A DNA stretch of 57,251 nt from Coriobacteriales bacterium (GCA_031264075.1 JAISEO010000101.1:1-57251), one strand, 5' to 3'; counted from the first letter of the stretch, positions 22,631 to 39,600 are shown. Translations and numbers: made by a program. The notes: generated by a model from the letters alone, not told the origin.

Positions 22631-22689
22631 GGATTTCAGAAAAAGTTTTGCGGAGAAGGTGAGGGAGAAAGGGGCTGAGGGGCGTGTCG

Positions 22690-22810: not shown

Positions 22811-22878
22811 CCCTTCCCCCCTGCCTCAAGACGGGCAGGCGCGGGGAGTTTCACCCCGCACCAGGGAGAGAGGCTCTG

Positions 22879-25800
22879 CTAGGCGCCACCGGTGAGTACC
22901 GGGGCTCTGCCCTGATTGTTTTGCAACACATCCTTTTCCTCGTCCGCCTTGTCGTCTTCACGGTGCACGACGGTGCAGGCGGCGACGATACTGAACAACA
23001 TCACCAGGGCAAACACGATAGAGTAGAGGTCGAATATGACCGGCGGGTTGGACAGGTCCTGGGTGAGGATGAACAGTATCACCGCAAAGACCACGGCCAG
23101 CAGCGCGCCGAGTAGCATGTACGGACGCAGGCGGCTTACGCCCTCGCCGTCGTTCTTCTCGCTACCAGCCTGGGCGGATGCGGCCTGTACAGCATTTCGC
23201 GTGGTAGTGGCTGCAGCTTGCTCATCTTCCTCGTCTTTTCTGCGCCGCAGGAGGCTTCGGACTGCCGCGACGATGAGCGCCAGAGCACAGACGATGGTGG
23301 CGAAGAGGTCAAACAGAGACCATGCCGCAAAGCCCGAGGGTGCTACGAGCGGAATCTGGAAGCCGAAGATGTCGAGTACCGGGATGCCCTCGGCACGAGC
23401 CGCGTCAGTGATGCTCGGGTCGGCCTCGGGGGTCGGCGTGGTTTTGAGAGACTCGGTAAGAGAGGCACCCACCGGAATCAGCGTGTCCTTTTTCCACACT
23501 GCTGTGAGCGTCACATCGTTGTCCGGCATGCTGAAGCTCTCCTCCGGCTTCAAGGTATCTCCCAGAGAGGACTGGTAGCCCTCAAAGCTGTAGCCCTGCC
23601 GCTTGGGAGCCGCGCCTACGATGACGCTTGTGCCAAAGTTGATGCCCGTCTCATTCGCCGGCAGGCCGGTGACCGCATCGTTCTCTGAATCGGACAGGCC
23701 GGCATCGTAGATAAGGTCGTGGCTGTTGATGACCCAGACGGCATAGAGGCTTATGTGGCCGGTTACCGTATGGCCGGCGCCGGGCTGGTAGGCCACTTCC
23801 GCGGAGTCGGGGTTGAAGGACCAACCGGCGAGGCTATGGCCTTCGCGCAGCAGCGAGCCCTGATTCTGAATCGTCGCCGTCTGGCCGTAGCTGTGTCCCG
23901 TCTGGTCCGGCGCGGTACCGGAGGTGTGGCCCACGGAGAAATAGCTCACGTAGTACAGGTTGGAATCAACCAGGCTCACCTTGATGGTGGTAGAGGCACC
24001 GTAGCCATTGTAGAAGGTGAGCGGGAGCGTCACCATCTGATGATCGTTCTGCGCGGCTATGAGCGCGTCGAGTTCCTCGGCATTGTAGGCTATGTCTTCC
24101 TGCAAAATCCAATGGTCGTTCACGTCGGTCGCTGTCACCGCGGAACGCGTGCGCGCGATGAGGTCGTCGAGGGTCGGCTGCGTTATCTCGTAGCTGAAGT
24201 CGTTGGCCACGATGTGCCCGCTGCCGCCTCGGCCCGTGCCGCCGCCGTTATCGGTAATGGTAACCTCAACGGTAACCGCTACGTCGCCGGGACCCGCGTA
24301 GGTTGAGGGGAAGGTCTCCCCTGCCACAGTTGCCGCGTTAATGGCGTCGAGCTGGTCCTCGTCAACGATGACGAGCGCAAGGTCCAGGGGGAACCCGTCC
24401 TTATCGCGCAGATCGGTTGCCGCGAGGTCTATGGCCTGCTCGGGAGTGATATTGAGCTCGTCGAGCCCCACCGAGAAGTCATCGGCTGCGATGTGGTTGC
24501 GACCATCAGGCGCATCGGGCTTGCTGTAGTCGCGTAAGGTCACGGTGATGGTTGTGGAGACGCCCTCCGGCGTGGAGAAGGTGAGCGGATAGAAGCCCCG
24601 CATCCGCGCGTGTTGGGCGGCGACGATTGCCTCGAGCTGGCCTTGGTCCACCGTTATCTTGGTAAACGGAATGCGCAGTCCGTCCTTGTCGCGGGCCGAT
24701 ACATGGCTGAGTATGCGGGAGCGCACAACATTCAGGTCGGCCTGGCTGCAGCCATACGAAAAGTCGGAGGCTGAGATGGTGGGCCTGCCGGGATCCGGCA
24801 CCGCGGGGGCGCCGTGCTCATAGAGACGCACCTGGATGGTGACGCTCTTCCCGCCCAGTACTTCCGTAAAGGTCAGCGGGAAGCTGCCCGGTATGCCGGC
24901 GTTCTTCTGCGCGTTGATGAAGGCAAGCTCTACCGCGTCCACCACTATGGTGGAGACATCCTGGAAGAAGCCCTCGGTGTCGCGGGCGACAACGCGGGAG
25001 AGGTATTTTGCGAGCGTCTTGCTGATGTCGGGCTGGTCGATGCCATACTCGAAGTCGTCCGCGGCGATGTAGGTCTCATCCGCACCCGGCGTGGGTGGTA
25101 TGACGTCGAAGATACGGACGTTGACGGTAACCGATTTGCCGCCTTCCGGCTCGGTGAAGGTGAGCGGGAAGTTGCCAATCTCGCCAGCCTTGATAGCGTC
25201 GTTGATGATTTTGAGTTCGTCTCCGACGCCCACGGTTATGTCAGCCTCATCCTGGAAGAAGCCTTCGATGTCACGGGCAACAACGCGGGAGAGTTCCTTG
25301 GCAATGTCGGGACTCAGTTCCTCTGCAGGCGTACCGTCAGAGTAGTGCAGTCCATACTCGAAGTCGTCTGCTGCGATGTAGGTCTCGCCTTCAGGTGCGG
25401 GGCTTTCAGGAACCTCAGGTATGACGTCGAAGATACGGACGTTGACGGTAACGGACTTGTATCCCAAAGGCTCGGTAAAGGTGAGCGGGAAGTTACCTAT
25501 CGTGCCTGAGTCGATGGCAGCGCAGATGTCTGCGAACTCATCGTCTACGCCGACCAGTATGGTAGAGGTGACTTGCGGGAAGCCCTCTACGGTGCGGGCG
25601 ATGACGTGGGAAAGCTCACGGGCAAGGACCTCGGTGAAGTCCTCTGCGGGGCTTCCGTCAGAGTAGTGCAGTCCATACTCGAAGTCGTCAGCTGCGATGT
25701 AGGTCTCGCCTTCAGTGTTCGGCATCTCGGGGACAGTCGGAACAACATCAAAGAGGCGGACCTTGACGGTGACGGTCTTCATGCCGACAGGCTCTGTGAA

Positions 25801-28800
25801 GGTGAGGTCATGGATGCCAATCTCTCCGGCCTTGATGGCGTCGTTGATAGCATCAAGCATACCCTCATCTACGAGTATGGTGGAGACATCTTGGGTGAAG
25901 CCTTCTCTGTCACGTGCTATGGCGTGTGCGAGTTCCTTCGCGACATCATCGCTCAGGGCAAGAGCAGGTGTTCTGTCAGAGTAGTACAGTCCATACTCGA
26001 AGTCGTCTGCTGCGATGTAGGTCTCGCCGGCCTCTGGTACCTCAGATCCGAGGGCGTCGTAGAGGCGCACGTTTACGATGACAGACTTGCCACCCTCTAT
26101 CTCTGTGAAGGTCAGCGGGAGGGTCTTCAGCGTGCCTGCCGCTATGGCATCGTTGATGGCTTTAAGCTGGGTCTGGTCTACTGTTATGGCGGAGACCTCC
26201 TGCAGGGAACCGTCGGTATTGTAGGCGATAACATGCGAGAGCTGGCGTGCGAGAGGATCTTGGATGGCGTCTGCCGGGCTGCCGTCGGCCTTTCTGACGC
26301 CGTACTCGAAGTCGTTGGCAAAGATGGACGTAGTGTCATAGCCAGGACCGTCTGGCCCTGCGCCGTGGTCATAGATCGTCACCCAGATGGTGGTGATGTT
26401 GGTAGTGGTCAGGTCAGGATAGTGGGGGTTCACCACCGGCGTGGAGATCGTGAGCTCGTATTTACCGGGCGTTCCGGCAGTGATGAGACCATTGATGGCC
26501 TTAAGATGTGCGGCGGTGGGCAAAAGCATATCCCTGAGGTCAATGACCCCTCCACCGTAATAGGTACCGGTCGCGCGGGCCAGCTGGATGGCGAGAAGGT
26601 CCGCAGTGATGAGCCCCTGGTCGATGCCGCGCGAGAAGTCCAGGGCATCTATCTTATCCTTGCCCGCAGAGTTGATATGGGCGTATTGCAGATAGGGCAC
26701 ACTTTCGTTGCCGGCGATGTCCGTAGTGATAACCCACACGTCGTAGTAGGCATCCACCTGAGGGAGAACAGCCGCGGCGCGGGCCACGTAATCCCCGGCC
26801 ACAGGAGACGTACCCGTAGCTACCACGGCCACCTTGGTGGTTGCGATATCGATGCCGGAGAGGGAGAGGTTCTCATTCTCAGTTGCCGAAGCATTTGCGT
26901 GGTTGTAGTTCGTGGGCTCACCGTTGAAGGCGTCCTTGGAGCGCTCTTCAAAACCAAAGGTGGCGGTATTGAGTTGTACGCGGGCCAGAGGCTTGGTCGT
27001 GTCGATCTTAAGGATGTAGGGAGCATGCGTAGAAAGCTCGGTGGCCGCAGAGGTATTCGTGCTGGTCATCACGCCATAGACCGGGGTGACCTGCTCGTCG
27101 GTGAAGGTCTTGAAGGCCGGTGCGGTCGGCCTGCTTAAAGAGTTTGCGTTGCCACTCGCAAGCCAGACGGGGATAACCGGTGCGTCCTTATACAGCGACA
27201 GGTAGTAGATGCCGGTCGCTTCGCTGTTGTCGGTTACCTGTACGGAAACCTCGGTGTTGGTCCAGGTGTTGGTGGCAAGTACCTTTTCAGAGTTAACCGA
27301 GCTGCCCGTATAACCGGTGATGACAGGCGCGCGCGTAGTCCAGACCGCGTACACCGTCTTGCCTGCGTCAGTCCAGTCAACGATAGCGGCACTGGTGAAG
27401 TCGGCTGTGTTGCTGGTGCCCGTGCCTGTGGTGAAACTGCCCTCGGTCTCAGACCAACCCGAGAAGGTATAGCCCGCAAGCGTCGGTGCCCCAGAGCCGA
27501 TATCCGGGAGCGTGCCTACGGCTGAGTCGAAGACGACGGACTTCTCGGAGGTTCCCAGTGCGGCTCCGACAGCGTTTGCGTTGAAGTACAGCTTGTAGCT
27601 GTTAGCTGACCACTGAGCATAGAGCTTCAGGTCAGATGTGAGGTCCCAGGGCTCGAACTTTTTGCCGTTGGCATAGGAAGTGCCCTTGCCATCTGCAGCC
27701 GTGTTCCAGCCGATGAAGCTGTAGCCGGTGAGTGAGAAGGTGTTTGTCGTGAGTGTCAGGTTCTGGTTGTAGGTGGCTGTCTGGCTTGTCATGGTACCGG
27801 AGACAGCGCCAGTGGCACCACTGGGTTTGTTTCCTTCGTAGCTTACCGTGTAGGTATTGGCCTTCCAGCGGGCGAAGAGCTCCACATTCCCAGCCACTGT
27901 CAGCTTATAGTCCGCTTCGTTCGCATAGGCCAGGTCGCCGTTTTTCGTGGTCGACCAGCCGTCAAAGGTATAGCCTGTTTTGCTGAAGCCGTTTGAGGTG
28001 AGTTTTTTGGTCTCGTCGAAATTGATGGGAAGGTCCGCTGTTGAACCTCCGGTATTATCGTTGCCGTTGAAGGTTACCTTGTAGCTGTTAGCTGACCACA
28101 CCGCGTAGAGCGTCACATCTGTATCTACGGCAAGTGTGTAGCTCGCCTTGTCGTCGTATGCCTTGCCGCCGGCTGCTGAGGTTGCCCAGCCAGCGAAGGT
28201 GTAGCCTGTCTTGGAAAAGCCGTTAGCGGTGAGGTTTTTGGTCTGACCAACGTCGATGGGAAGGTCAAGCATTGAGCCTGTGCCGCCGTTGGAGCTGAAG
28301 ATTATTTTGTGCGCATTGGCCGTCCACACCGCATAGACGGTCTTGGAGCCTTCCCAATCTACGGTTGTAGTGTTGTCGAAGTTGACTGAGTTGCTGGCAC
28401 CTGAGTCCGTGGACCAGCCCGCGAAGGTATAGCCGGTGCGGGTGGGTGCTCCTGAGCCGGTGGCAGGCAGTAGCTTTGACTGTGTGGTAAAGCTCTGGCC
28501 AAAGCTAAGACCAGTCATCTTCGTGATGTCGCCTGCCACACCACCGTTGGCGTTAAAGATAAGCTCGCTGTCTGTGCGGGCCTTCCATTCGGCATAGAGC
28601 GTTGTGCCTCCTGCTGTTTGCAGCTTGTAGCTCTGACTGTCTGCATAGTGGGTGCCGGTGCCGTTCGGATACGTGCACCAGCTGACAAAGGTATAGCCTG
28701 TGCGGGTAAATCCGTTCGGGGTGAGCGTCTTGGTTTCATCGAAATACATCTCAAGGTCTGCCGTTGAACCTCCGGTATTGCCGTTGCCGTTGAAGATCAC

Positions 28801-31800
28801 CTTGTAGAAGTTTGCCTTCCACTGGGCATACAGCTTAAGGCCCGTTGTGGACTGCCAGGGTGTAAACGCCTGTTCATCCACGTAGTCAGTGCCGGTTCCG
28901 TTCGCAGCCGTGTTCCAGCCGGTGAAGGTGTAACCGTTGAGTACGAATTCGTTCTTTGTAAGCGTCAGGTTCTGGCCGTAGGTGGCTGTCTGGGAATCCA
29001 TGCTGAACGGGCTGACGGTTCCAGTCGCACCGCTGGGCTTGTTCCTATCATAAGATATAGTAGCGGTAGCAGGCGTCCAATGGGCATAGAGCTTGAGGGT
29101 GTTATAGGAAACCACTCCGTTTTCCACAGTCAGGTCTGTGCCCGTGCCCGCTGCACCGAACTTCCAGCCGCCCGCAGGCGTGTCATCGGTAACATGGGTA
29201 TACCAACCGGTGAAGGTGAAGCCCAAGCGCGTGGGAGTGGGCGTGGGAGCCGTGGTTATCGTAGCACCGTATTCACCGCGCGTGGTAAGCGTGGCCGTTG
29301 TTTCCCCGCTGTTTTGGGTGGTATAGAGTGTCGAGCTGTCGTAGTAATACGAGATGCCGACTTCCGCGTAGTTTATGTCGAGGTTGTTGAAGACGGATTT
29401 CTTGTTAAATTCAGCATTGTCGGTAAGCCCGTTAAGTGAGTTTATGTTCGCGGGACTGAGCGTGGCAACGCCTCCCACGAAGGCCACCGGAGGGTTTGCT
29501 TTGTGATCGGGTGACAACAGATAGACCTGAATGGCCTTGTTCGTATTAAAGCTTACCGAACTGCCCTCAGGTATTGACAGGTAGCTGTAGTCTGTCGTGT
29601 ATACGCCGCCGCCGTTGAGAGATGCCGTGTTGTTCGAGATGGTTCCATTGCCCATGGCGAGGGAGCCCCTGAGGGAACCGGTGTGGTTTACGTACACGCC
29701 GCCGCCGTTAAGGCCTGCCGTGTTGCCTGAGATGGTTCCAGCCTCCATGCTGAAGGAGCCGGCAGCATACACGCCGCCGCCATTGATCTTGACGCCATCA
29801 GCTCCCTTATTGCCGCTTATCGTACCGCCCTTCATGGTTAAGGAGCCGAAGCCGTAAGGAGACGTAGTAGCACCGTTATTGTGTATGTACACCCCGCCGC
29901 CGCCGACAGAAGTTGCCGTATTGCCCGAGATCGTCCCGTTCTTCATGACAAAGGGACCACTGGTGTACACGCCACCGCCGTAACCGTATGTGGTACCCGT
30001 TGCCGTATTGCCCGAGATCGTCCCGTCCTCCATGGTGAAGGAGCCGTATACCGTGGAACTCCCGGCGTTGCAATACACACCGCCGCCGCCGCCCTGGCCG
30101 CCTCCCCAGGGGGATTTGTACTCGTCTGCCGTATTGCCCGAGATCGTCCCACCACTCATGGTAAAGGCCATACGATAGCCTACGTATACACCGCCGCCGG
30201 GGCTAACTGACCTGTTGTTTTTAATCGTACCACTGGTCATGGTGAAGGAGCCACCTCTGTCTAGACTGCTGTCGCTCAGGTGCACGCCGCCGCCGCCGTA
30301 GTTGCTGTTGGAGGTCAACGTCTCATTGCCGGATATCTCTCCGCCGTCCATGGTGAACTGGCGATCATAATCGATGTATACGCCGCCGCCGGCCCTCTCC
30401 GCCGTGTTGTTTGAAATCGTCATACCGTTTTTCATGAAACTGGGCATGCGGACCATATAATCATTTGACAAAGCGTAGTTATTGACTAGCATGCCGCCGC
30501 CGTTTTGAGCCGTGTTATCTGAGATTGTCCCCTTGTACAATTCAAAGCCGGTATAGCCAAGAATACCGCCGCCCTTAGTGGTTGACGTATTATGAGAGAT
30601 CGTCCCGCCGTTCATGACAATACCGCCGGCCACACCGCCGCCGCCCAGAAAGATTCCGGTTCCATCTGCGTTATTTTCTGAACGGTTATACGATATCTCC
30701 CCGCCGTTCATGACAAACGATATCACCGCATCAGTCCCAGTGCTACCAATATCGGCAACGCCTAACACGCCGCCGCCGCAAAGCGCCTTATTGTATGCTA
30801 TCTTGCCGGCATTCAGGGTAAAGACGGATTCGGAGCCTACGTACACACCGCCGCCGCCCAAAGTTTTCTCGTTGCCCTGTGCCTCGTTGTACGATATCTC
30901 CCCGCCGTCCATGGTGAAGGAGGACTTTCCGACTGAAGAGCCATGCATGTATCCCACAGAAACACCGCCACCGTTTCCTATGGCTCCATTATTTGAGTTG
31001 ATTCCTGTGGCTAGATTAGATGAGATGGCACCGTTCTTCATGACAAAGGTGCTGCCATATTCCACAGACACGCCACCACCATACGTTGCACGGTTGCCCG
31101 AGATCGTCCCACCCTCCATGGTGAAGGAACTTCCACTTGTGGAGGAACCTCCTCTTACGTACACGCCGCCGCCATATCCATAGTTTGGCGTCGAATTGTT
31201 CAAAATGCTTCCGGCCTTCATGGTGAAGGAGCTTCCTTCGTACAAATACACACCACCACCTGAGGTGTTACACGTGTTTCCTGAGATCTCCCCACCATTC
31301 ATGATGAGAGAACCGCCTCTAACGTATACGCCACCGCCTGTTCCCGTGTTTCCTGAGATCTCCCCACCATTCATGATGAGAGAACCGCCTTCAACGTATA
31401 CGCCACCGCCTTGGTTCACGGAGTAAGACGACTCGGTTTCCGATCTGTTATTCGTGATCTTCGCTCCTGCAGCCATCGTCAGCGTACTGGCAGCACCTAC
31501 ACTTACGCCGCCGCCGAAGACGGACTCGGTGTCTGAGGACACACTGTTACCTGAGATGACCGCGCCACTCTTCATGGTGAGATTACTGTATTTGAGCACG
31601 TATATGGCACCGCCGTAACCGTGGCGAGCCACGTTACCTGAGATGACCGCGCCGCTCTCCACGATGATTTCCGCGCCCCCTTCCGAATATATGCCACCGC
31701 CAGAACCACCCGTATTATTTGAGATGCTTGCACCGCTCTTTACGGTAAGGGTACAGGATGCCGAGTAGATGCTTATGCCGGCACCACGAAAAGCATCGTT

Positions 31801-32547
31801 TTCTGAGATGCTTGCACCGGCATTCACAGTGACGGTAGAGTTTGTCCCTTTTGTATAAACGCAAATGCCACCGCCGCCGTAATTGCCCCCAACATTATTA
31901 CCCTTGATGACTGTGCCGCTGTTCAAGATGAGTTCGCAGGATGCCGCGTCTACGAATATGCCAGCGCCATAGTTGCCGTGGTATCCTTCCCTGATAACAA
32001 CATCCGCAAGCGTGAGTTTTGCGCCAGCGTCATACATGCCAATTACTCGCCTGTTAATGTTATCGGTTCCTTCACCGCCTATCAACGCATATTGCTTGCC
32101 TGCAACACTGCGTATAGTAACGTCCATGCTTGCGGGAATCTTCAGTTCTGGTTTTATCACGAAGTCCTCATGCAGCTCCATCACCCAGGGTTCGCCCGCA
32201 GAGAGACCGCGGTCAACACTTCTCACATTGCCGGTATCTGCCAGGGCGTTAGCCGGCGACGCGTAGTCGTAAGGCCCGCCCTCACCCGTACCCACCGTAA
32301 AGACATTGCCACTTCCCAGTGACATCGGCGCGACGCCCAGGCTCATGACCTCGGCTGTGGGCGAGAACGAGAGATCCTGGGCTTCTAGCCTGGTGACATC
32401 ATCCAGCTCAGCGTCGTCTGGCAACGCGTCGTCCGGTTCAGATTCTGTGAGCCCCCCCCCCCCCGGTGTTGGGGTCTGCAACGTCATCAGGGATGGGAAT
32501 AGGATCGGGTTGGTCCGCGGTCTGTTCCTCCACCACAGGGACGGCAT
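22879..32547 (-). CDS. giant mosaic cell-surface protein (body, 3,222 codons as listed; lacks its own signal peptide)
   Basis: Approximate domain map. 32300-29450: Pmp-like GGGVYV/(G)TISGNT parallel beta-helix repeats. 29340-27330: 8 Listeria-Bacteroides (Flg_new) repeats (GYTFxGW ... LYAxW). 27330-26660: Ig-like region. 26660-23970: 10 tandem ~100-aa repeats (YIAADDFEYG...FPLTFTEP.G.KSVTVNVRIFDV). 23970-23480: 2 more Flg_new repeats. 23420-22940: 3 hydrophobic TM-like segments with RRRKDEEDE between them. The stop is TAG at 22879. Confidence 0.9.
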   Translation of the reverse strand: MPSLWWRNRPRTNPILFPSLMTLQTPTPGGGGLTESEPDDALPDDAELDDVTRLEAQDLSFSPTAEVMSLGVAPMSLGSGNVFTVGTGEGGPYDYASPANALADTGNVRSVDRGLSAGEPWVMELHEDFVIKPELKIPASMDVTIRSVAGKQYALIGGEGTDNINRRVIGMYDAGAKLTLADVVIREGYHGNYGAGIFVDAASCELILNSGTVIKGNNVGGNYGGGGICVYTKGTNSTVTVNAGASISENDAFRGAGISIYSASCTLTVKSGASISNNTGGSGGGIYSEGGAEIIVESGAVISGNVARHGYGGAIYVLKYSNLTMKSGAVISGNSVSSDTESVFGGGVSVGAASTLTMAAGAKITNNRSETESSYSVNQGGGVYVEGGSLIMNGGEISGNTGTGGGVYVRGGSLIMNGGEISGNTCNTSGGGVYLYEGSSFTMKAGSILNNSTPNYGYGGGVYVRGGSSTSGSSFTMEGGTISGNRATYGGGVSVEYGSTFVMKNGAISSNLATGINSNNGAIGNGGGVSVGYMHGSSVGKSSFTMDGGEISYNEAQGNEKTLGGGGVYVGSESVFTLNAGKIAYNKALCGGGVLGVADIGSTGTDAVISFVMNGGEISYNRSENNADGTGIFLGGGGVAGGIVMNGGTISHNTSTTKGGGILGYTGFELYKGTISDNTAQNGGGMLVNNYALSNDYMVRMPSFMKNGMTISNNTAERAGGGVYIDYDRQFTMDGGEISGNETLTSNSNYGGGGVHLSDSSLDRGGSFTMTSGTIKNNRSVSPGGGVYVGYRMAFTMSGGTISGNTADEYKSPWGGGQGGGGGVYCNAGSSTVYGSFTMEDGTISGNTATGTTYGYGGGVYTSGPFVMKNGTISGNTATSVGGGGVYIHNNGATTSPYGFGSLTMKGGTISGNKGADGVKINGGGVYAAGSFSMEAGTISGNTAGLNGGGVYVNHTGSLRGSLAMGNGTISNNTASLNGGGVYTTDYSYLSIPEGSSVSFNTNKAIQVYLLSPDHKANPPVAFVGGVATLSPANINSLNGLTDNAEFNKKSVFNNLDINYAEVGISYYYDSSTLYTTQNSGETTATLTTRGEYGATITTAPTPTPTRLGFTFTGWYTHVTDDTPAGGWKFGAAGTGTDLTVENGVVSYNTLKLYAHWTPATATISYDRNKPSGATGTVSPFSMDSQTATYGQNLTLTKNEFVLNGYTFTGWNTAANGTGTDYVDEQAFTPWQSTTGLKLYAQWKANFYKVIFNGNGNTGGSTADLEMYFDETKTLTPNGFTRTGYTFVSWCTYPNGTGTHYADSQSYKLQTAGGTTLYAEWKARTDSELIFNANGGVAGDITKMTGLSFGQSFTTQSKLLPATGSGAPTRTGYTFAGWSTDSGASNSVNFDNTTTVDWEGSKTVYAVWTANAHKIIFSSNGGTGSMLDLPIDVGQTKNLTANGFSKTGYTFAGWATSAAGGKAYDDKASYTLAVDTDVTLYAVWSANSYKVTFNGNDNTGGSTADLPINFDETKKLTSNGFSKTGYTFDGWSTTKNGDLAYANEADYKLTVAGNVELFARWKANTYTVSYEGNKPSGATGAVSGTMTSQTATYNQNLTLTTNTFSLTGYSFIGWNTAADGKGTSYANGKKFEPWDLTSDLKLYAQWSANSYKLYFNANAVGAALGTSEKSVVFDSAVGTLPDIGSGAPTLAGYTFSGWSETEGSFTTGTGTSNTADFTSAAIVDWTDAGKTVYAVWTTRAPVITGYTGSSVNSEKVLATNTWTNTEVSVQVTDNSEATGIYYLSLYKDAPVIPVWLASGNANSLSRPTAPAFKTFTDEQVTPVYGVMTSTNTSAATELSTHAPYILKIDTTKPLARVQLNTATFGFEERSKDAFNGEPTNYNHANASATENENLSLSGIDIATTKVAVVATGTSPVAGDYVARAAAVLPQVDAYYDVWVITTDIAGNESVPYLQYAHINSAGKDKIDALDFSRGIDQGLITADLLAIQLARATGTYYGGGVIDLRDMLLPTAAHLKAINGLITAGTPGKYELTISTPVVNPHYPDLTTTNITTIWVTIYDHGAGPDGPGYDTTSIFANDFEYGVRKADGSPADAIQDPLARQLSHVIAYNTDGSLQEVSAITVDQTQLKAINDAIAAGTLKTLPLTFTEIEGGKSVIVNVRLYDALGSEVPEAGETYIAADDFEYGLYYSDRTPALALSDDVAKELAHAIARDREGFTQDVSTILVDEGMLDAINDAIKAGEIGIHDLTFTEPVGMKTVTVKVRLFDVVPTVPEMPNTEGETYIAADDFEYGLHYSDGSPAEDFTEVLARELSHVIARTVEGFPQVTSTILVGVDDEFADICAAIDSGTIGNFPLTFTEPLGYKSVTVNVRIFDVIPEVPESPAPEGETYIAADDFEYGLHYSDGTPAEELSPDIAKELSRVVARDIEGFFQDEADITVGVGDELKIINDAIKAGEIGNFPLTFTEPEGGKSVTVNVRIFDVIPPTPGADETYIAADDFEYGIDQPDISKTLAKYLSRVVARDTEGFFQDVSTIVVDAVELAFINAQKNAGIPGSFPLTFTEVLGGKSVTIQVRLYEHGAPAVPDPGRPTISASDFSYGCSQADLNVVRSRILSHVSARDKDGLRIPFTKITVDQGQLEAIVAAQHARMRGFYPLTFSTPEGVSTTITVTLRDYSKPDAPDGRNHIAADDFSVGLDELNITPEQAIDLAATDLRDKDGFPLDLALVIVDEDQLDAINAATVAGETFPSTYAGPGDVAVTVEVTITDNGGGTGRGGSGHIVANDFSYEITQPTLDDLIARTRSAVTATDVNDHWILQEDIAYNAEELDALIAAQNDHQMVTLPLTFYNGYGASTTIKVSLVDSNLYYVSYFSVGHTSGTAPDQTGHSYGQTATIQNQGSLLREGHSLAGWSFNPDSAEVAYQPGAGHTVTGHISLYAVWVINSHDLIYDAGLSDSENDAVTGLPANETGINFGTSVIVGAAPKRQGYSFEGYQSSLGDTLKPEESFSMPDNDVTLTAVWKKDTLIPVGASLTESLKTTPTPEADPSITDAARAEGIPVLDIFGFQIPLVAPSGFAAWSLFDLFATIVCALALIVAAVRSLLRRRKDEEDEQAAATTTRNAVQAASAQAGSEKNDGEGVSRLRPYMLLGALLAVVFAVILFILTQDLSNPPVIFDLYSIVFALVMLFSIVAACTVVHREDDKADEEKDVLQNNQGRAPVLTGGA
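23970..26660 (-). repeat. tandem in-frame coding repeats, about 285-321 bp each, 10 copies
   Basis: The junction motif ccatactcgaagtcgtc(t/c/a)gc(t/g)gcgatgtaggtctc recurs at 25043, 25352, 25673 and 25991 (spacings 309, 321, 318). Diverged copies lie near 24190, 24470, 24750, 26300 and 26640. Confidence 0.85.
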
Positions 32548-32725
32548 CGTCCGCCCACGCGGTAACCGGCGTAATCATGGAAGTTGCCATAATAAAAGCC
32601 AGCATCGTCAGTAGTATCTTCTTGGCTACCGTTGATGTCTGGCCTCGTCCTGTACCACTGCCTCGCGTTGTCCCGTTCATTGCCACTTCACCTGCCCTTT
32701 CACCGTTTCCTGCTTCTCTCGTCAT
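32438..32725 (-). CDS. 5' fragment of the giant surface-protein gene (signal peptide plus acidic linker), out of frame with the body
   Basis: The MNGTTRGSGTGRGQTSTVAKKILLTMLAFIMATSMITPVTAWA|DDAVPVVEEQTADQPDPIPIPDDVADPNTGGGG segment has a Sec-type signal peptide. The frame ends 4 codons after the poly-G tract. ATG 32725 or ATG 32680 (AGGTGAAG upstream). Confidence 0.75.
   Translation of the reverse strand: MTREAGNGERAGEVAMNGTTRGSGTGRGQTSTVAKKILLTMLAFIMATSMITPVTAWADDAVPVVEEQTADQPDPIPIPDDVADPNTGGGGAHRI
32452..32464 (-). repeat. homopolymer tract: 13 G on the coding strand (13 C on plus)
   Basis: Counted directly: g at 32451, then c at 32452-32464, then ggtg. The tract lies at the junction of the two reading frames. 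Confidence 0.95.
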
Positions 32726-32922
32726 TGCCCGTGCTTACCCAGTGCTGAGGTCCCGCTTCTCTTGCCCTGCTGCATCGGTTGAGAGCTACCCTGTTGCCAA
32801 AGTACCGCCTCCTGCGCCGCTCCTGAGGCTCGATCAACACACAAGAACCTCGTTGTCAACGCAAATCCGATAAAACTTCTTCCTTGAAATTACGGTACGG
32901 TGGGGGCGTCGTCAAGTATATT

Positions 32923-33058
32923 GCTTGAATCTCCACAAAATAAACACAATTGGAGTTTGAGGCCGGGCGCCTTTGAGGTCGATTGAGCTTGAATCTCCAC
33001 AAAATCTCCACAAAATGAACACAATTGGGGTTTGAAGGCGGGCTTGCGGCCTTGAGGT
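32923..33058. repeat. two direct ~57-72-bp repeats with an internal 11-bp duplication (iteron-like)
   Basis: gcttgaatctccacaaaataaacacaattggagtttgaggccgggcgcctttgaggt (32923-32979) against gcttgaatctccacaaaatctccacaaaatgaacacaattggggtttgaaggcgggcttgcggccttgaggt (32987-33058). A third gagtttgagg follows at about 33069. Confidence 0.8.
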
Positions 33059-33134
33059 AAATTAAGGGAGTTTGAGGATGATGTGCTGTCTGGGCAGCTG
33101 AAGATTCCTGGAAATAAGGGGAACTGAGCCCCCG

Positions 33135-33159
33135 CTCGCTCGCAATGACAGTGGGGGGG
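33135..33159. repeat. solo copy of the MITE-like element terminus
   Basis: ctcgctcgcaatgacagtggggggg matches 19604-19628 (ctcgctcgcaatgacagaggggggg) at 24/25 positions, in the same orientation. Confidence 0.7.
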
Positions 33160-33207
33160 CATAGGAGCTGTTACCCCGTACCCCAGTACCGTTACAATTT
33201 TTCTAAT

Positions 33208-33510
33208 TCAAATTTCATACAGCACAACCCCAGTAGATTCGATTTCCCTCTCTATGGGAGAGCCTGATTCAATATGAGTGGCATCAATGAGGTCAACATT
33301 CTTGTCAACCGCCCTGGTGATTGTTTCAAGAAGCCCCACAAACTCGAGACCGCGAAGCCCGCTGTCTACAAATAGGTCAATATCACTTTTGGGAGCAACA
33401 TCGCCCCTCCCGTACGAGCCAAACAGCATCGCCCTACGCACATTATTGGCGATAAAAATCGGCGTCAATAAGTTTTTGATCTGATATATGTCATACACAG
33501 TCTCAGTCAT
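33208..33510 (-). CDS. MntA-type minimal nucleotidyltransferase (antitoxin-like), no HepT/HEPN partner
   Basis: LFGSYGRGDVAPKSDIDLFVD is the GSxxRG...DxD NTase motif. 100 aa. AT-richer than its surroundings (26 G+C of 60 nt at 33241-33300). Confidence 0.85.
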   Translation of the reverse strand: MTETVYDIYQIKNLLTPIFIANNVRRAMLFGSYGRGDVAPKSDIDLFVDSGLRGLEFVGLLETITRAVDKNVDLIDATHIESGSPIEREIESTGVVLYEI

Positions 33511-33627
33511 GTATACCTAACAGGATGTTCTTTTGAATACGTATTGGTACCGTCCTGTCTTTCAGCATCCACACTATAGCATGGCTATTCCTGCTTTTCA
33601 ATACGTACGTGCTTGTTTACAGTACTT

Positions 33628-36372
33628 TCAGCGATTGTCTGACGCTTCGTGTTTGTCTTCCAGTGCTGCCTGGGCGGCGGCCAGGCGGGCCAGGGGCACG
33701 CGGTAGGGCGAACAGCTCACGTAATCCAGGCCTATCCTGTGGAAGATCTTGACGGACTGCGGGTCGCCGCCGTGCTCGCCGCAGATACCCAGGCCAAGCT
33801 CGGGGTTGGCCGAGCGTCCGAGCTGCACGGCCATCTCAACCAGCTTGGCCACGCCCTCGTCCAGCGTCTCGAAGGGATTGAAGGGGATTATCTTGCGTTC
33901 AAGGTAGCGTGGCACGAATTTGCTCTCCACGTCGTCGCGCGAGAAACCAAAGGCGGTCTGGGTGAGGTCGTTGGTGCCAAAGGAGAAGAAGTCTGCCCTG
34001 GCAGCTATCTCATCTGCGGTCACGGCGGCGCGGGGCAACTCGATCATCGTGCCAATGGCAAGGTCAAGCTCCCTCCCAAACTCCTCGCCCACCTCTTCCA
34101 GTACGGCCTCGCATTCCTCGCGCAGCGTGGCCAGTTCTGGCTCCACACTCACCAGGGGTATCATGATCTCGGGGTTGGGATGCAGGCCCTCTGCGAGCAG
34201 GCGGGCGGTTGCGGTGGCAAGGGCACGCACCTGCATGGCGGCCAGCTCGGGGTTGAGGATGGCCAGGCGCACGCCGCGCAGCCCGAGCATGGGGTTCATC
34301 TCCGTCATGGAGTCGATGCGCGAGAGCAGCGCACGCTTGGTGATGACGAGGTCGGTGTCCTCGGCGGTCAGCTCCAGGCGGGTTATCTCCACCTCGAGCA
34401 TACGCGGGTCGTCGAGGAACTCGTGCAGCGGCGGGTCGAGCAGGCGCACGACCACCGGCAGGCCGTCCATGGCCTTGAACATGCCGTAGAAGTCCTCGGT
34501 CTGGACTCGGAGCAGATCATCGAGCGCCTTTTCGCGTACGGCAGGATCATCGCTCAGGATGTAGTTCTGGATGATGGCCTTGCGACTGCCGAGGAACATA
34601 TGCTCGGTGCGGCAGAGCCCTATGCCGCTGGCCCCAAACTCGCGGGACAGCCCGGCGTCCTCGGGGTTATCGGCGTTGGCACGCACGCCCAGCGTGCGAA
34701 ATTCGTCCGCCCAGCCGAGAATGGTATCCAGGTCGCCGGAAAGCTCGGGCAGTACGAGGTCCACCGCACCGAGCACCAGGATGCCGCTCGTACCGTCGAT
34801 GGAGATGACGTCGCCCTCCTCAATAACGATGTCGGTACCCGCGATGAGGGCGCGACGTGCCTCGGCATCGATCCTCAGCGCCTCGGCGCCACAGACACAG
34901 GGCGTACCCATGCCGCGTGCGATGACCGCCGCGTGCGAGGTCTTACCCCCGTGGCTCGTGAGGATGCCCTCGGCAGCAACCATGCCGGCCAGATCGTCGG
35001 GATTGGTCTCCCAGCGCACGAGCACGGTCTTCTCTCCCTCACTCGCATAGGCCACGGCCGTGTCAGCGGCAAAGACCGCCCTTCCCACGGCCGCACCCGG
35101 GCTTGCGTTAAGGCCGCGTGCCACCACCTCCAGCGAGGCATCCCTGTCAAACTGCGGATGCAGGAGCTGGTCGAGCTGCGAGGGGTCAATGCGCAAAATG
35201 GCCTCCTCCTTTGAGATAAGGCCCTCCCCTACCATGTCGATGGCAATGTGCAGGGCGGCCAGAGCCGTGCGCTTGCCCACGCGGGTCTGGAGCATCCAGA
35301 GCGTGCCCTGCTCGATGGTAAACTCAATGTCGCACATATCGCGATAGTGGTTTTCAAGGATGGAGAATACCTCCTCGAGCCGTTTGCCGGCCGCCTCAAG
35401 CCCCGGATTGTTCTTGAGCTCGGAAATAGGGCTGGTGTTGCGGATACCGGCGACGACATCCTCCCCCTGCGCGTTGATGAGGTAGTCGCCGTAGAGCACA
35501 TTCTCCCCGGAGGCAGGGTCGCGGGTAAAGGCCACGCCGGTAGCCGAGGTGTTGCCCTTGTTGCCAAAGACCATGCACTGCACGTTGACGGCCGTGCCCA
35601 GATCGTCGGGAATCCTGTTCTGCTTGCGGTAGAGCTGGGCGCGGTCGTTCATCCAGGAGCCAAAGACGGCCTTGATGGCGAGCAGCAGCTGGGTGTCCGG
35701 GCTCTGCGGAAACGCTACCCTGCCCGCGGCGTCCCGCTCCAACTCCGGAAAGTCCGCCGCCTCCACATTGTTGGCAAATATCTGCTTGAAGGCACCGACG
35801 AGCGCTTCCAGATCCTCGGCGGAAAGCTCGTTGTCTCCCGCAACGCCGCGGGTGATCTTCGTGGCGGTGAGGGCATTCTCAAAGAGGTCGCCGTCGATGT
35901 TCATGACCACCTTGCTGAACATCTGAATGAAGCGGCGATAGCTGTCCCAGGCAAAACGCGGGTTGTTGGTCTGGGCTATGAGGCCCTTGATGGACTCGTC
36001 GTTAAGGCCGAGGTTGAGCACGGTGTCCATCATGCCGGGCATCGAGAAGGGGGCGCCGGAGCGCACGCTTACCAGCAGGGGATCTGCGGGGTCTCCTATC
36101 TTCTTGCCCATGCGCTTTTCAAGGTCCAGACGATAGTCCTCGATCTCTGCCAGTGCCTCGGGAACAAAACGGTTGCCGCCCTGTGCGTATTCCATGCAGG
36201 TCTGACAGGAGATGGTAAAGCCGGGCGGAACCGGCAGGCCGATGGAGGCCATCTCGGCCAGGTTGGCGCCCTTGCCGCCCAAGATGGATTTCATGTCTCT
36301 GTTGCCCTCTGTTACGTTAACGCCGGCCTCATCTGCGCCAAAAGCATAGACGCGTTTTGCTGTCTCAGCCAC
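33628..36372 (-). CDS. ppdK: pyruvate, phosphate dikinase
   Basis: AETAKRVYAFG...ILGGKGANLAEM, phospho-His motif GGKTSHAAVIARGMGTPCV, and a C-terminal PEP-utilising TIM barrel (GICGEHGGDP). GTG 36372 lies behind an AAGGAG SD. The track start at 36606 adds about 78 non-homologous codons. Confidence 0.93.
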   Translation of the reverse strand: MAETAKRVYAFGADEAGVNVTEGNRDMKSILGGKGANLAEMASIGLPVPPGFTISCQTCMEYAQGGNRFVPEALAEIEDYRLDLEKRMGKKIGDPADPLLVSVRSGAPFSMPGMMDTVLNLGLNDESIKGLIAQTNNPRFAWDSYRRFIQMFSKVVMNIDGDLFENALTATKITRGVAGDNELSAEDLEALVGAFKQIFANNVEAADFPELERDAAGRVAFPQSPDTQLLLAIKAVFGSWMNDRAQLYRKQNRIPDDLGTAVNVQCMVFGNKGNTSATGVAFTRDPASGENVLYGDYLINAQGEDVVAGIRNTSPISELKNNPGLEAAGKRLEEVFSILENHYRDMCDIEFTIEQGTLWMLQTRVGKRTALAALHIAIDMVGEGLISKEEAILRIDPSQLDQLLHPQFDRDASLEVVARGLNASPGAAVGRAVFAADTAVAYASEGEKTVLVRWETNPDDLAGMVAAEGILTSHGGKTSHAAVIARGMGTPCVCGAEALRIDAEARRALIAGTDIVIEEGDVISIDGTSGILVLGAVDLVLPELSGDLDTILGWADEFRTLGVRANADNPEDAGLSREFGASGIGLCRTEHMFLGSRKAIIQNYILSDDPAVREKALDDLLRVQTEDFYGMFKAMDGLPVVVRLLDPPLHEFLDDPRMLEVEITRLELTAEDTDLVITKRALLSRIDSMTEMNPMLGLRGVRLAILNPELAAMQVRALATATARLLAEGLHPNPEIMIPLVSVEPELATLREECEAVLEEVGEEFGRELDLAIGTMIELPRAAVTADEIAARADFFSFGTNDLTQTAFGFSRDDVESKFVPRYLERKIIPFNPFETLDEGVAKLVEMAVQLGRSANPELGLGICGEHGGDPQSVKIFHRIGLDYVSCSPYRVPLARLAAAQAALEDKHEASDNR

Positions 36373-36632
36373 AGTTGCACTCCTTATCACATTACTCTGC
36401 GGCTCGCACAAGCCGCTGGGGTCAAGAGTATCAAGGATAACAGAAGCCGAGCCGCGCGGCAGGCAGTTTTGCCAGACATCGCCGAGATGTAAGCTATGCT
36501 GTGGAGGCGGCGTGATATCCTGCCAGCGCCAATCTGCGTGAGTCAGGCACTGAGCAGCACTCCCTCCCTGTTCACATTCTGATAGAAAGGAAGAGTTTCT
36601 GACCATGCGTCAAATATACCTTGTTAACCCCT

Positions 36633-39600
36633 CTACGCGCTGGAAAGCTGTAGGAGTTGGGCCTTGAGGCGTCCATCCTGGCCGTCTACGGTGTAGGGTA
36701 GCTCGGCTCGGAGCGGCGTGGCGCTCTCGCGTTCGAGAATGAGAACCACCGGGTCAATGCCCCCATAACTCCCCAGCAGACGCGAGAGTTCATCTGAGAA
36801 TACCTGATTGAATGCACTGGCCTTGAAGCGGAGTTCGAGCGGGCGGGGCTCTCGCGTGGCGTTCTCACTGAGGCGTATCTCCCTGATGGCGCTGACCTTG
36901 ACCTGCGAGCCGCGGTCTGAGGTCTCGAAGAAGCCCGTTACCTGCACGACCGCGTCCTCCACCAGAATCTCCCGATAGCTCTCAAAGGGCCGGGGAAACA
37001 GTATCATCTCCATGCTGTCCTCAAGGTCCTCCAGCAGAAAACGTGCCATCCGCTCACCCTTCTTGGTAACCAGGGGAGAAACGCTCGCAATCATCCCGGC
37101 CAGCGTTATCTGCCGGTCCTGGGGAACCCGCCGCCGGAAGGCCTCGCCCATCACATCACCGGAGATGCCCTCGGACAGGTCCAGGGCCTCGCCGCCTACC
37201 TCCGCATCGTCCATCTGCGCATCGGCCAGGAGCTCTGACAGGGTATATTCCGCAGCGACTTTAAGCGAATCGGCATAGGGGTTGAGCGGGTGGTCAGACA
37301 CATACATCTTGAGTATCTCTTTTTCAAAGGCGAGCTTCTCGCGCCGGTCCCACTCTATGCCATCCGGAGGCTCGACGACATCCCCAAAGCCTGCGTCCTC
37401 GGCGTCGTCGCCCAGGAGGTCAAGCATCGAGACCTGGCCTTCTGCCCTCGCCTTGCGCCGCGTGGACGCGATCTCAACAATTTTGTCCACGTCGAGTATC
37501 CTCAGCATATGCCTGCGCGTGTAGCCGGTGGAGTCGAGCGCACCCGACTTGATGAGTGCGTCAACCGCGCGCTTGCTTACGATGGAATTGGGCACGCGAA
37601 AGACGAAGTCGTGGAGCGAGGTAAAGGGGCCCTTTCTCTCGCGTTCCCTGATTATCTCGCTCGCCGCCTGCTCGCCTACGCCCCTGATGCCGGCAAGGCC
37701 GAAGCGGATGGACGCGCCGAGCGCGGTAAACTCAAGCCCAGAGGAGTTGACATCGGGAGGCAGCACCTCTATGCCCTCCTTGCGGCAGATGGTGATGTAA
37801 TGGGTGAGCGCGTCGTTGCGCCCGAGGTTGGAGGACAGCACCGCAGCCATGAACTCAACCGGATAGTGCGCCTTGAACCAGGCTGTCTGCATGACGAGCA
37901 CGGCGTAGGCAGCGGAATGCGACTTATTGAAGGCGTACTCGGCAAACTTCTCCACGTCTTCCCAAATGGCCTGGGCCACCTGCCTCGTGTAACCGTTTCT
38001 CTCGGCACCGTTGAGCCAGTGGTTTTTCATGGATTCGGTGGTGCCGTCCTTCCAGCTGCGCTCCTCAGACATCATGGCGTAAATCTTCTTGGCCACGGCC
38101 TTGCGCACGATATCGCTCTCGCCGGCGGTAAAGCCACTCATGGTCATGGAAATCTGCATGACCTGCTCCTGGTAGACAATGGCGCCGTAGGTCTCCTGCA
38201 GTATGGGAGCGAGCCGGTCGTCGTAGTACTTCACGCGCTTTCTGCCACTCTTGCGGTCTACGAAGTCGTTGACCATGCCGGAGTTCAAGGGGCCGGGACG
38301 GAACAGTGCGATAGTTGCCACGATGTCCGAGTAGCGGTCGGGCTTCATGCGCCTGAGCAGCGTCGTCATGCCGGGCGACTCCACCTGAAACACGCCAGCC
38401 GTCTCGCCTCGTTGCAGGAGCCCGAATACCTTGGCATCGTCGAGCGGTATGGCGTCGATGTCGATGTCTACGCCGCAGCTCTGCTTTACGTAGTCACGCG
38501 CGCGCATCAGTACGTTGAGCGTGCGCAGCCCCAGAAAATCCATCTTCAACAGGCCAAGCTTGGCGTTATATTCCCCGTCGTACTGCGTGATGATGACCTC
38601 ACCCTTGGTGTCCTTTTTGACCGGGACGTGCTTTTCTATCGGATCGCGGCAGATAATGACCGCGCTGGGGTGCACGCCCTCGCCGCGGATGGAGCCTTCC
38701 AACATGAGTGCCGTCTTAACCACCAGCTTTGCCTCATCGTTGCTGTTGATGAGATCGAGGAGGTCCGCGCTCCTCTGAGTCGCGAGCTTGCTGTCTCGGG
38801 ATTCGCCGAGGTTGGCCCTGAGGTTGGCCGCCGGGCCTCCCTGGATGGTCTTGGAGATCTTCTGGGCAAGCGAGATGGGCTTGTCGAGGATGCGCGCGGC
38901 GTCGTTGATGGCCGCCTTGGCCTTCATCGTGGAGTAGGTGATGACGTGGGCGACCTTGTCAAAACCGTAGAGTTCGCGCAGATGCTCGATGACCCGGAAT
39001 CGGCCTTCCTCGTCAAAGTCGATGTCGATGTCGGGCATCTCCACGCGCTCGGGCGAGAGGAAGCGCTCGAACATGAGTCCGTTGGAAAGCGGGTCGAGGT
39101 CGGTGATGCCCAGCGCGTAGCTGATGATGGACCCTGCCGCACTGCCGCGCCCCGGGCCCACACCCACGCCGTTGTTGCGTGCCCAGTCCACAAACTCCGC
39201 CACCACCAGAAAGTAGGAGGGAAAGCCCTGGGAGCAGATTATCTCATACTCGTAGTCGTAGCGCTCGCGCACCTCCGCCGACAGAGGACTGCCATAGCGC
39301 GCCTCAAGACCGGAGAGTGCCTGTTTGGCCAGAAGCGAGCTATTGGTCTCGCCCTCGGGAAGCGGTATCTGCGGCAGCACGTAGTCGTCGGGCAGTTCGA
39401 CCTTACACTTGGCCGCAATCTCAACGGTGGTATCGCAGGCATCGGAGAACTCCCCGAGCGCCGAGCGCATCTCTGCCTCACTCTTCATATAGAACTGGTC
39501 GCACTCGAAGCGCAGCCGCCCCTCATCGCTTACGCGCGAGCCGGTCTGGATGCAGAGCATGTAGTCCTGGGCTACGCTGTCGGCCTGCCTGAGGTAGTGG

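Follow-up and report, generated by a model that had tools for sequence, protein, structure and literature searches.

A run of 13 guanines (G13) lies between a predicted Sec signal peptide and the stop-free body of a giant surface-protein gene in a Coriobacteriales bacterium. From the sequence, and by analogy with systems characterised elsewhere, we consider this tract to be probably a slipped-strand, phase-variable contingency locus that was assembled in its OFF state. The length of the tract modulo 3 sets whether the start codon is in or out of frame with the gene body, and tracts at the equivalent position of distant homologues occur in both ON and OFF lengths. The whole stretch of DNA that was analysed comprises 57,251 bases with a GC content of 60%; it is referred to as the window, and all coordinates are positions within it.

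Results

Two reading frames meet at the G13 tract

The 5' part of the gene contains the following features.

32552–32680, minus strand: from ATG 32680, the probable start codon, through a Sec-type signal peptide of 43 residues with AWA|DD at its end, read from the sequence
32465–32551, minus strand: acidic Pro-rich linker of 29 codons (DDAVPVVEEQTADQPDPIPIPDDVADPNT), from the cleavage site to the tract
32452–32464, minus strand: G13, the slippage-tract candidate, encoding Gly4 as four GGG codons plus one extra G (C13 on the plus strand)
32438–32440, minus strand: TGA that ends the signal-peptide frame at G13 (OFF), four codons past the tract
22879–32451, minus strand: giant-gene body, 3,190 codons past the tract with 0 internal stops (whole gene 9.8 kb, body 9.6 kb)

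An earlier note on this DNA had described a minus-strand G13 tract, a signal-peptide ORF that enters it and stops four codons later, and a giant ORF that crosses it in the adjacent frame with no export signal of its own; inspection of the sequence and its translation confirmed all three. The signal-peptide ORF extends on the minus strand from 32725 to 32438 (MTREAGNGERAGEVAMNGTTRGSGTGRGQTSTVAKKILLTMLAFIMATSMITPVTAWADDAVPVVEEQTADQPDPIPIPDDVADPNTGGGGAHRI, followed by the stop) and comprises 80 codons from ATG 32680 or 95 codons from the alternative in-frame ATG at 32725. The former is preceded by the sequence AGGTG, which ends 8 nt upstream. A scan for sigma-70 promoters in the 5' region gave no match. 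The predicted Sec-type signal peptide has a charged n-region (R, R, KK), a core ILLTMLAFIMA with a Kyte-Doolittle value of 2.7 and an A-x-A motif; a single hydrophobic segment, VAKKILLTMLAFIMATSMITPVTA, is present at the N-terminus and precedes the cleavage motif AWA|DD. The giant ORF (32547 to 22879, minus strand) is intact over 3,222 codons and, in the -1 frame, also spans the tract (...TPTPGGGGLTESEPDD...), and its own N-terminus contains no such hydrophobic segment.

In silico variation of the tract from 9 to 17 residues revealed that G9, G12 and G15 fuse both ORFs into one. The fused product comprises 3,281 or 3,282 amino acids from ATG 32725 (G12 and G15, respectively) and 3,265–3,267 amino acids from ATG 32680 (G9, G12 and G15). 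The fusion of about 3,281 codons predicted earlier for 12 or 15 G was thus reproduced, and G9 has the same effect. With all other tract lengths translation meets a stop within about 79–115 codons. GC3 did not discriminate between the rival frames upstream of the tract (0.58 and 0.61 over 72 codons) and thus gave no independent confirmation of the coding frame.

The tract is over-represented

The G13 tract is the only homopolymer of at least 8 residues in the window, where the next longest are three 7-mers. Based on the base composition of the window, about 0.01–0.02 G/C runs of at least 13 are expected per 57 kb, and a comparison set of 1.54 Mb, taken from loci of related and other genomes, contained 0 G/C runs of at least 9. 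Codon choice is equally non-random. Elsewhere in the giant gene GGG is the rarest glycine codon (30 of 401, 7.5%), and the 26 other glycine runs of at least three residues are encoded almost exclusively by GGC and GGT, with GGG never occurring more than once in each. The chance of four consecutive GGG codons, calculated from the glycine codon usage of the gene, is about 3e-5. As four GGG codons coincide here and no G/C run of at least 9 was found in the related genomes, the tract is not an accident of composition: it is over-represented with respect to both base composition and codon usage, and hence maintained. It is located in the 5' coding region, 29 codons past the predicted signal-peptide cleavage site.

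The giant gene encodes a predicted surface protein

Downstream of the tract, the following features were assigned.

29452–32196, minus strand: Gly-rich repeat region (GGGVY.., ..ISGN..), predicted to form an all-beta, parallel-beta-helix-like rod
27250–29300, minus strand: Listeria-Bacteroides (Flg_new / TIGR02543) repeat array, approximate coordinates derived from G[YF]TFxGW motifs
near 23595–23841, minus strand: two more divergent Listeria-Bacteroides repeat copies
22948–23322, minus strand: FILTED-type C-terminal membrane anchor (NF052597, 60.6 bits, cutoff 40) with three hydrophobic segments

The Gly-rich repeat region matched proteins of metagenomic relatives (BLASTP E values of 1e-14 and 2e-13 for the L109 and L096 proteins, respectively), and Pfam and PDB sequence searches with the N-terminal 1,000 amino acids gave no match. 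An AF2 model of the rod region was all-beta (pTM 0.73, pLDDT 64). The top Foldseek matches were all parallel beta-helix proteins, among them Ag43, pertactin and tailspikes; as none reached E <= 1e-3, the beta-helix is still a prediction. The repeat array showed eight stretches of similarity to the profile PF09479 (E 1.4e-65) and also matched PF18998. At the C-terminus an LPXTG sorting signal is absent, and the single LPxTG-like string lies mid-protein in a repeat, at residue 1419. Signal peptide, repeats, FILTED anchor, three transmembrane segments and the modelled beta-helix-like rod together predict that the product is surface-exposed. A literature search for "FILTED domain" or for the sequencing run SRR14710921, described below, found no paper.

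The neighbouring genes encode an ECF sigma factor (22508–21945), a beta-propeller protein, a nucleotidyltransferase and PPDK; no sortase gene was found among them. The large housekeeping genes of the window (DnaE, PPDK, AlaRS, an AddA-like helicase and a hybrid kinase) are full length when compared with Pfam profiles. Together with the stop-free 9.6-kb body, this indicates that the assembly is not generally prone to frameshifts and that the giant gene is not decayed.

Distant homologues carry tracts in ON and OFF lengths

Forty distant homologues were identified in metagenome contigs, which originate from human and primate gut. The relatives that bear a tract share 27–35% identity with the giant protein, confined to the repetitive beta-helix region, and about 25 of the 35 homologue loci with a 5' end lack any tract. 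Within 273 kb of homologue contigs, all G runs of at least 8 belong to the coding strand, and they lie at the 5' end of either the homologue or the adjacent surface-protein gene. The tract directly follows the signal peptide in L109 (...VAFA|TD-G9; GC 60%) and in L094, L096 and L098 (...VLA|MT followed by G9, G7 and G7, respectively), and it lies about 45 codons past the signal peptide in L110, L108, L106 and L097.

The earlier note had suggested comparing the tract in related genomes, and this comparison revealed poly-G at the same position in distant homologues and, among near-identical contigs, lengths of the ON as well as of the OFF state. In contigs which are 97–99% identical across the flanks, indels are confined to the tract and switch the frame. 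L096 and L098 carry G7 and are ON, while the corresponding L094 carries G9 and is OFF; likewise, L110 is ON with G8, and L108 (G9) and L106 (G7AGG) are OFF. Including the window, four alleles are ON and five are OFF. In a 90%-identical orthologue the tract is interrupted (TGGGAGGGAG), and paralogues have none. The glycine residues are hence dispensable, and a pure homopolymer is no coding requirement.

No second full record of the locus in the collections searched

An exact search for the flanks of the tract, separated by a variable gap, gave 0 matches in GTDB contigs (one genome per species) and 0 in JGI metagenome contigs. The N-terminal 339 amino acids of the fused product matched none of 5.8 billion proteins, and look-ups of the exact products of the giant ORF, the signal-peptide ORF in its 95-aa and 80-aa forms and PPDK (three start choices) were empty. 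One short Logan contig each was retrieved with the sigma factor and with the nucleotidyltransferase, both from SRR14710921, which is the only other public sample containing the same organism. These contigs cover positions 20949–25126 and 33035–33991, match the window with 100% identity and end at k-mer repeats short of the tract. The count of 13 G is that of the assembly; the true length may differ by ±1, which would not remove the switch.

A synteny check of PPDK in 80 genomes gave best amino acid identities of 73–75% (Slackia faecicanis and Coriobacteriales MAGs), and in none of the matched genomes was the giant gene found downstream of PPDK. The species therefore has no close representative among these genomes, and the gene is not syntenic.

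Discussion

The proposed mechanism starts with transcription and with translation from ATG 32680, which would produce the Sec signal peptide and the short acidic linker. With G12, and also with G9 or G15, the ribosome would run on for about 3,190 codons (ON). The product would be exported, held at the cell surface by its C-terminal FILTED-type membrane anchor and would there display the beta-helix-like rod, the Listeria-Bacteroides repeats as well as unassigned repeats over about 1,000 residues. With G13, translation would end four codons past the tract and leave the 9.6-kb body without a start or export signal of its own (OFF). Strand slippage during replication would add or remove G residues at a rate that climbs steeply with tract length, so that a population would contain both ON and OFF cells, among which host immunity, phage or the adhesion niche may select. 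The assembly would represent the modal or a sampled OFF allele. By analogy with Bifidobacterium breve, polarity may affect the untranslated body and possibly also the ECF sigma gene downstream of it. A slipped-strand ON/OFF switch had been suggested before; it is backed by the codon usage and by the ON and OFF tracts of distant homologues, the variation in tract length being seen at the homologues only.

The out-of-frame state could be explained differently if the run had been miscalled, the true genome carrying G12 (or G15) and the gene being intact and expressed. Every sequencing platform is prone to errors in a run of 13 G, a read failure termed "G's end" and discrepancies between annotated and measured tract lengths have been reported for B. 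breve (PMC9187656), and a perfectly intact gene body is what an in-frame gene would have. We nevertheless regard this as unlikely, because the other long genes of the window are intact and reveal no general indel noise, and because the homologue tracts of 7–10 G, which Illumina assemblies size reliably, include ON and OFF lengths, so that OFF alleles are real in this family. Moreover, a miscall would affect the current state only: G12, composed of four GGG codons, would still be a switch prone to slippage. That the frameshift is permanent, in a tract born by chance, and the gene a plain pseudogene would agree with the assembled frame and with the complete identity of SRR14710921 wherever it overlaps, no intact allele being on record. 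We give this explanation hardly any credence, since neither a stop nor a second frameshift occurs in 3,190 codons past the tract, the rarest glycine codon of the gene is used four times within it, and homologues share the architecture and include ON alleles.

A fixed G13 could also be recoded, with RNA polymerase slippage or -1 ribosomal frameshifting (G GGG GGG) yielding a constant low fraction of full-length protein. Compared with the signal-peptide ORF, the body is indeed in the -1 frame, a G homopolymer permits perfect re-pairing of tRNA as well as realignment of nascent RNA, and slippage is known to occur at long homopolymers (references 44-45 in PMC9187656). However, the RNA beside the tract showed no unusual structure (fold z-scores of +0.80, +0.32 and -0.03), which indicates neither a frameshift stimulator nor an upstream hairpin that would drive productive transcriptional slippage. 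In addition, the out-of-frame layout is not conserved: relatives mix in-frame and out-of-frame alleles, a signature of switching at the DNA level and not of programmed recoding. In B. breve, too, productive changes were demonstrated in the DNA (PMC9187656). We therefore judge recoding to be very improbable and retain slippage at the DNA level as the preferred reading.

The closest known system is that of B. breve UCC2003, where replication slippage in G tracts was experimentally proven to switch bbr_1889a/b and bbr_0113a/b (Penno et al. 2022, Sci Rep, PMC9187656). There, bbr_1889a is a 65-aa ORF with a Shine-Dalgarno sequence and a Sec signal followed by G10, and bbr_1889b encodes 2,674 amino acids, lacks both a Shine-Dalgarno sequence and a signal peptide, and is in the OFF frame in the reference genome. 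At the G11 tract of bbr_0113, a single-colony culture contained 37% G11 next to 59% G12, and ON alleles were enriched in mice; database lengths of G tracts can be wrong (PMC9187656). Compared by description, the window shares with bbr_1889a/b the high-GC Gram-positive background and the succession of a short signal ORF, a coding-strand G tract and a giant ORF, and the change from G13 to G12 is exactly the -1+3n slippage required for productive expression in B. breve. The B. breve genes, however, encode LPXTG pilus subunits in sortase clusters, while the window protein has a FILTED-type transmembrane C-terminus and no sortase neighbour; it belongs to the Coriobacteriia and not to the Bifidobacteriales, and its tract exceeds the G10 and G11 of B. 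breve. The window gene therefore appears to work like the B. breve switch, to judge from this analogy, and not to be a member of that gene family.

Adhesin genes of Propionibacterium (Cutibacterium) acnes also carry poly-G/C tracts, in the promoter or at the 5' end, and the length of these tracts varies between strains and correlates with protein secretion (PMC3224659, PMC4746626). A species-wide survey attributed this variation to slow, clade-linked accumulation and not to active switching (PMC4746626), so that a long tract is no proof of rapid phase variation. P. acnes is likewise an actinobacterial commensal with tracts in surface-protein genes, but these encode small PT-repeat adhesins. 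Because B. breve bbr_1889a/b has the same layout, and P. acnes tracts have been described as well, the suggestion that such loci are not well documented in high-GC Gram-positive commensals does not hold. In Neisseria, Haemophilus and Campylobacter, 5' intragenic poly-G tracts switch surface-exposed products on and off by slipped-strand mispairing as proposed here (meningococcal hmbR/hpuA, PMC3786947; G/C tracts of Campylobacter, PMC8355987). Those organisms, however, are Gram-negative pathogens whose small genomes contain many such loci, while the window of an uncultured Gram-positive bacterium of commensal type contains one tract in 57 kb, in a gene roughly 3–10 times longer. Reversible G/C homopolymer frameshifts serve as an adaptive mechanism in the Mycobacterium tuberculosis complex, another member of the Actinobacteria; its tracts are short (typically 7–9), occur mostly in metabolic or regulatory genes and are not located at a signal-peptide junction (PMC10334774).

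As a candidate switch, the window locus is a further example of a known mechanism and introduces no new principle. In mucosal pathogens, phase variation by repeat slippage is textbook knowledge. The literature on gut commensals deals mostly with invertible promoters, and Bifidobacterium is, to our knowledge, the only one of them with a proven G-tract switch. A second actinobacterial class with the same split-gene layout in a much larger and differently anchored protein would suggest a wider pattern.

One can speculate that genes for giant beta-helix surface proteins of unrelated gut anaerobes repeatedly employ coding-strand poly-G directly after a signal peptide or abutting a promoter, in Coriobacteriia-like genomes of 60% GC as well as in human-gut bacteria of 40% GC; we put this forward tentatively, as a possibility somewhat short of an even chance. 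If it were true, the window would hold the first example from Coriobacteriia, as well as the first from a protein that is FILTED-anchored and independent of sortase, and the ON/OFF state of adhesins could be read from metagenomes, providing a host-by-host record of selection on the surface proteins of commensals. Such loci are usually annotated as a short hypothetical ORF and a giant protein without signal peptide, or as a pseudogene; flagging them as phase-variable would be preferable. The window locus and the polymorphisms of its homologues suggest that slippage switches of giant adhesins are general and under-annotated in gut anaerobes.

Tract and reading frames of the giant gene

The window (57,251 bases, GC 60%) contains a single homopolymer of at least 8 nucleotides, a G13 tract, the next longest being three 7-mers. 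It is located where two open reading frames overlap:

32464-32452, minus strand: G13 homopolymer (sequence)
32725->32438, minus strand: signal-peptide ORF (translation of sequence)
32547->22879, minus strand: giant ORF of 3,222 codons, crossing the tract in the -1 frame

The N-terminus of the signal-peptide ORF comprises a charged region, the hydrophobic core VAKKILLTMLAFIMATSMITPVTA and an AWA↓DD cleavage motif, followed by a 29-residue acidic Pro-rich linker, the tract-encoded GGGG and a stop four codons on. ATG 32680 is preferred to ATG 32725 as start codon, as AGGTG ends 8 nt upstream of it (read from the sequence). No signal-like segment of its own was found in the 3,222-codon ORF. Simulated tracts of G9, G12 or G15 led to one ORF of 3,265-3,267 codons from ATG 32680 (ON), and all other simulated lengths led to a stop within about 80-100 codons (OFF); from ATG 32725, too, G12 and G15 fused the two frames. 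Sequence and frame simulation thus bear out the anatomy described in the earlier note, namely a signal-peptide ORF, G13 and a giant ORF in the adjacent frame.

Calculated from base composition alone, about 0.01-0.02 G/C runs of at least 13 are expected in 57 kb, and no G/C run of at least 9 occurred in 1.54 Mb of PPDK-surrounding loci (Coriobacteriia, Streptomyces and others). The most telling argument against chance is codon usage. The giant gene contains 405 Gly codons, GGG accounting for 30 of the 401 outside the tract; the 26 other Gly runs (3-5 residues) are encoded almost exclusively by GGC/GGT with at most one GGG each, and GGG-GGG-GGG-GGG is found at the tract only. The G run is thus a feature of the DNA itself rather than a side effect of glycine coding.

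Protein architecture

The mature giant protein consists of five regions:

Region 1: about 85 residues, disordered and acidic
Region 2: about 900 residues of Gly-rich repeats, predicted all-beta (AF2 pTM 0.73, pLDDT 64)
Region 3: Listeria-Bacteroides repeat array (PF09479, E 1.4e-65)
Region 4: about 1,000 residues of repeats without family assignment
Region 5: C-terminal FILTED surface-protein domain with three hydrophobic segments (NF052597, 60.6 bits vs cutoff 40)

The best structural matches of the Gly-rich repeats were parallel beta-helix proteins (Ag43, pertactin, tailspikes), none at E <= 1e-3. The C-terminus carries no LPXTG sorting signal. An in-frame 72-nt (24-codon) tandem duplication in the beta-helix repeat region (31273-31411, 1.9 copies, 97% identity, GGSLIMNGGEISGNT...) offers a further place where length could vary, by recombination or slippage. 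GC3 of the giant gene (22879-32451) is 0.69 vs 0.78-0.80 in PPDK, dnaE and alaS (33628-40229 and 12519-15200), which would fit either horizontal acquisition or relaxed selection on codon use.

Genomic context and host

Upstream of the giant gene are a lone nucleotidyltransferase gene, PPDK and dnaE; downstream are two further genes:

21945-22508: ECF sigma factor gene
19651-21948: beta-propeller partner of the ECF sigma gene

Between the giant-gene stop and the ECF sigma gene (22509-22878), the minus strand showed no terminator-like hairpin. The solitary nucleotidyltransferase (33208-33510, 100 aa, Polbeta/NTP_transf_2) is MNT-antitoxin-like. Such proteins usually have a HEPN partner, which is missing here, since the next ORF (32890-33162) appears non-coding. 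Two 41-nt direct repeats, 90% identical and 75 nt apart, lie in the intergenic region 5' of the giant gene (32923-33043) and could be operator sites for some regulator; within one of them the 11-nt unit AATCTCCACAA (plus strand) is repeated 2.3 times (32992-33016). Logan contig L002 ends exactly at this repeat region.

The window PPDK shares at most 73-75% amino acid identity with GTDB species representatives (one genome per species), the best matches being Slackia faecicanis and Coriobacteriales and Actinomycetota MAGs, then Collinsella (68%). The organism would thus seem to be a rare member of the Coriobacteriia with no closely related genome sequenced. The sole other public sample with identical genes, SRR14710921, yielded two contigs, both 100% identical to the window and both ending at k-mer repeats before reaching the tract; exact flank searches and protein searches revealed no second copy of the locus.

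Poly-G tracts in distant homologues

Residues 33-432 of the giant ORF served as query in a protein-guided search of metagenome contigs, which identified 40 distant relatives. Two of these were compared pairwise by BLASTP (E 1e-14 and 2e-13) and matched at 27-33% identity, within the beta-helix repeats. Across the 273 kb of these contigs there are ten G runs (8-10 nt), each on the coding strand and at a 5' end, either that of the homologue itself or that of the surface-protein gene next to it. C runs were limited to one C17, at an artefact-like contig end (L115, 12-115, opening with A17, A12, A9 and C17 over some 100 nt); this start was omitted from the tract counts as a likely sequencing or assembly artefact. 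Three settings mirror the tract position in the window:

L109 (capuchin gut, GC 60%): MRRLKIVGASLAALCCMALATVLCTQVAFA↓TD-G9, out of frame
L094/L096/L098 (GC 40%): MKKKKLLSYILSTSLLISLTSNPVLA↓MT-Gn, G7 in frame in two contigs, G9 out of frame in the third
L106/L108/L110 and L097, in the gene that follows the homologue downstream: signal peptide, then some 45 residues, then Gn

For L109, a tract of G8 or G11 would give an open frame of >1,030 codons. The downstream gene of L106/L108/L110 occurs as G8 (ON), G9 (OFF) and G7AGG (OFF); that of L097, which has diverged, is ON with G9. Alignments of near-identical contigs showed flanks of 97-99% identity with indels confined to the tracts, and the alleles, window included, amount to 4 ON and 5 OFF. 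Short-read assemblers size tracts of 7-10 G reliably, so the length differences among homologues are very probably biological. In a 90%-identical orthologue (L123, about 155-165) the tract reads TGGGAGGGAG, interrupted and in frame; glycines are absent at this position from more distant paralogues. This allele and the out-of-frame G7AGG (L106, 8097-8106), otherwise near-identical to its counterparts, look like alleles locked ON and OFF, respectively, by a G-to-A change.

In three further homologue groups the G run lies upstream of the gene and adjoins promoter elements, making these runs candidate promoter-strength switches:

L100, 3143-3179: G8 directly before an 11/12 TTGACA-17-TATACT promoter
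L122, 3077-3091: G9 directly before a perfect TATAAT
L106 1912-1926, L108 2665-2680, L110 4199-4213 (near-identical human-gut contigs): G9, G10 and G9 adjoining TATAAG

Known systems

In Bifidobacterium breve UCC2003, bbr_1889a (a 65-aa ORF with a Sec signal) is followed by G10 and by bbr_1889b (2,674 aa, without SD or signal peptide), and putting both in frame led to pili (PMC9187656). Barcoded sequencing of the bbr_0113 G11 tract in a single-colony culture revealed 37% G11, 59% G12 and 3% G10, and the G10 tract at bbr_1889 was 93% G10; productive events were -1+3n, mouse passage enriched ON lengths, and the authors cautioned that tract lengths in databases may be wrong (PMC9187656). The window shares this experimentally shown layout and its -1+3n arithmetic, but differs in its host (Coriobacteriia), its tract (G13 vs G10/G11) and its protein, which is not an LPXTG pilin, lacks a sortase cluster and has a FILTED-type membrane anchor. 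The proposed switch would act like that of B. breve but belongs outside that gene family. In Propionibacterium acnes, strains differ in a poly-C tract of the adhesin gene PPA2127 (5' end) and in a G11/13/15 tract upstream of PPA1880, and secretion of the proteins varies with them (PMC3224659); a survey of 90 genomes took the variation to be slow and tied to clades (PMC4746626). In light of these precedents, the earlier view of such switches as poorly documented among high-GC Gram-positive commensals fails (PMC9187656, PMC3224659, PMC4746626).

Proposed mechanism and alternative explanations

Replication slippage is the simplest account of the tract: it would alter the length by ±1 and so shift the gene body into and out of frame with the sole available start codon and export signal. 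We consider the tract a candidate, and probably a genuine, slipped-strand ON/OFF switch of the giant surface-protein gene. This proposal of the earlier note gains from codon usage and from the ON and OFF lengths in distant homologues.

Programmed recoding at the tract finds no support, as the flanking RNA on either side shows no excess of structure over shuffled controls and the out-of-frame state is not conserved among relatives. Some transcriptional slippage may occur on the 13-mer and could allow traces of product in OFF cells. The 3,190 codons without a stop after the tract make a pseudogene unlikely. All long housekeeping genes in the window match Pfam profiles end to end and the only frameshift seen is that at the tract, so the assembly is not indel-noisy; a miscalled length, the true one being G12, is possible, but would alter the recorded state only and leave a slippage-prone tract in place.

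The locus would be a new example of a mechanism already known from B. breve. If the giant gene and the ECF sigma gene are co-transcribed, the OFF state could also cut sigma-factor expression by polarity. The most interesting lead of the analysis comes from the distant homologues in gut metagenomes of human and primate origin, which carry the same signal-peptide-proximal coding-strand poly-G in predicted ON and OFF alleles.
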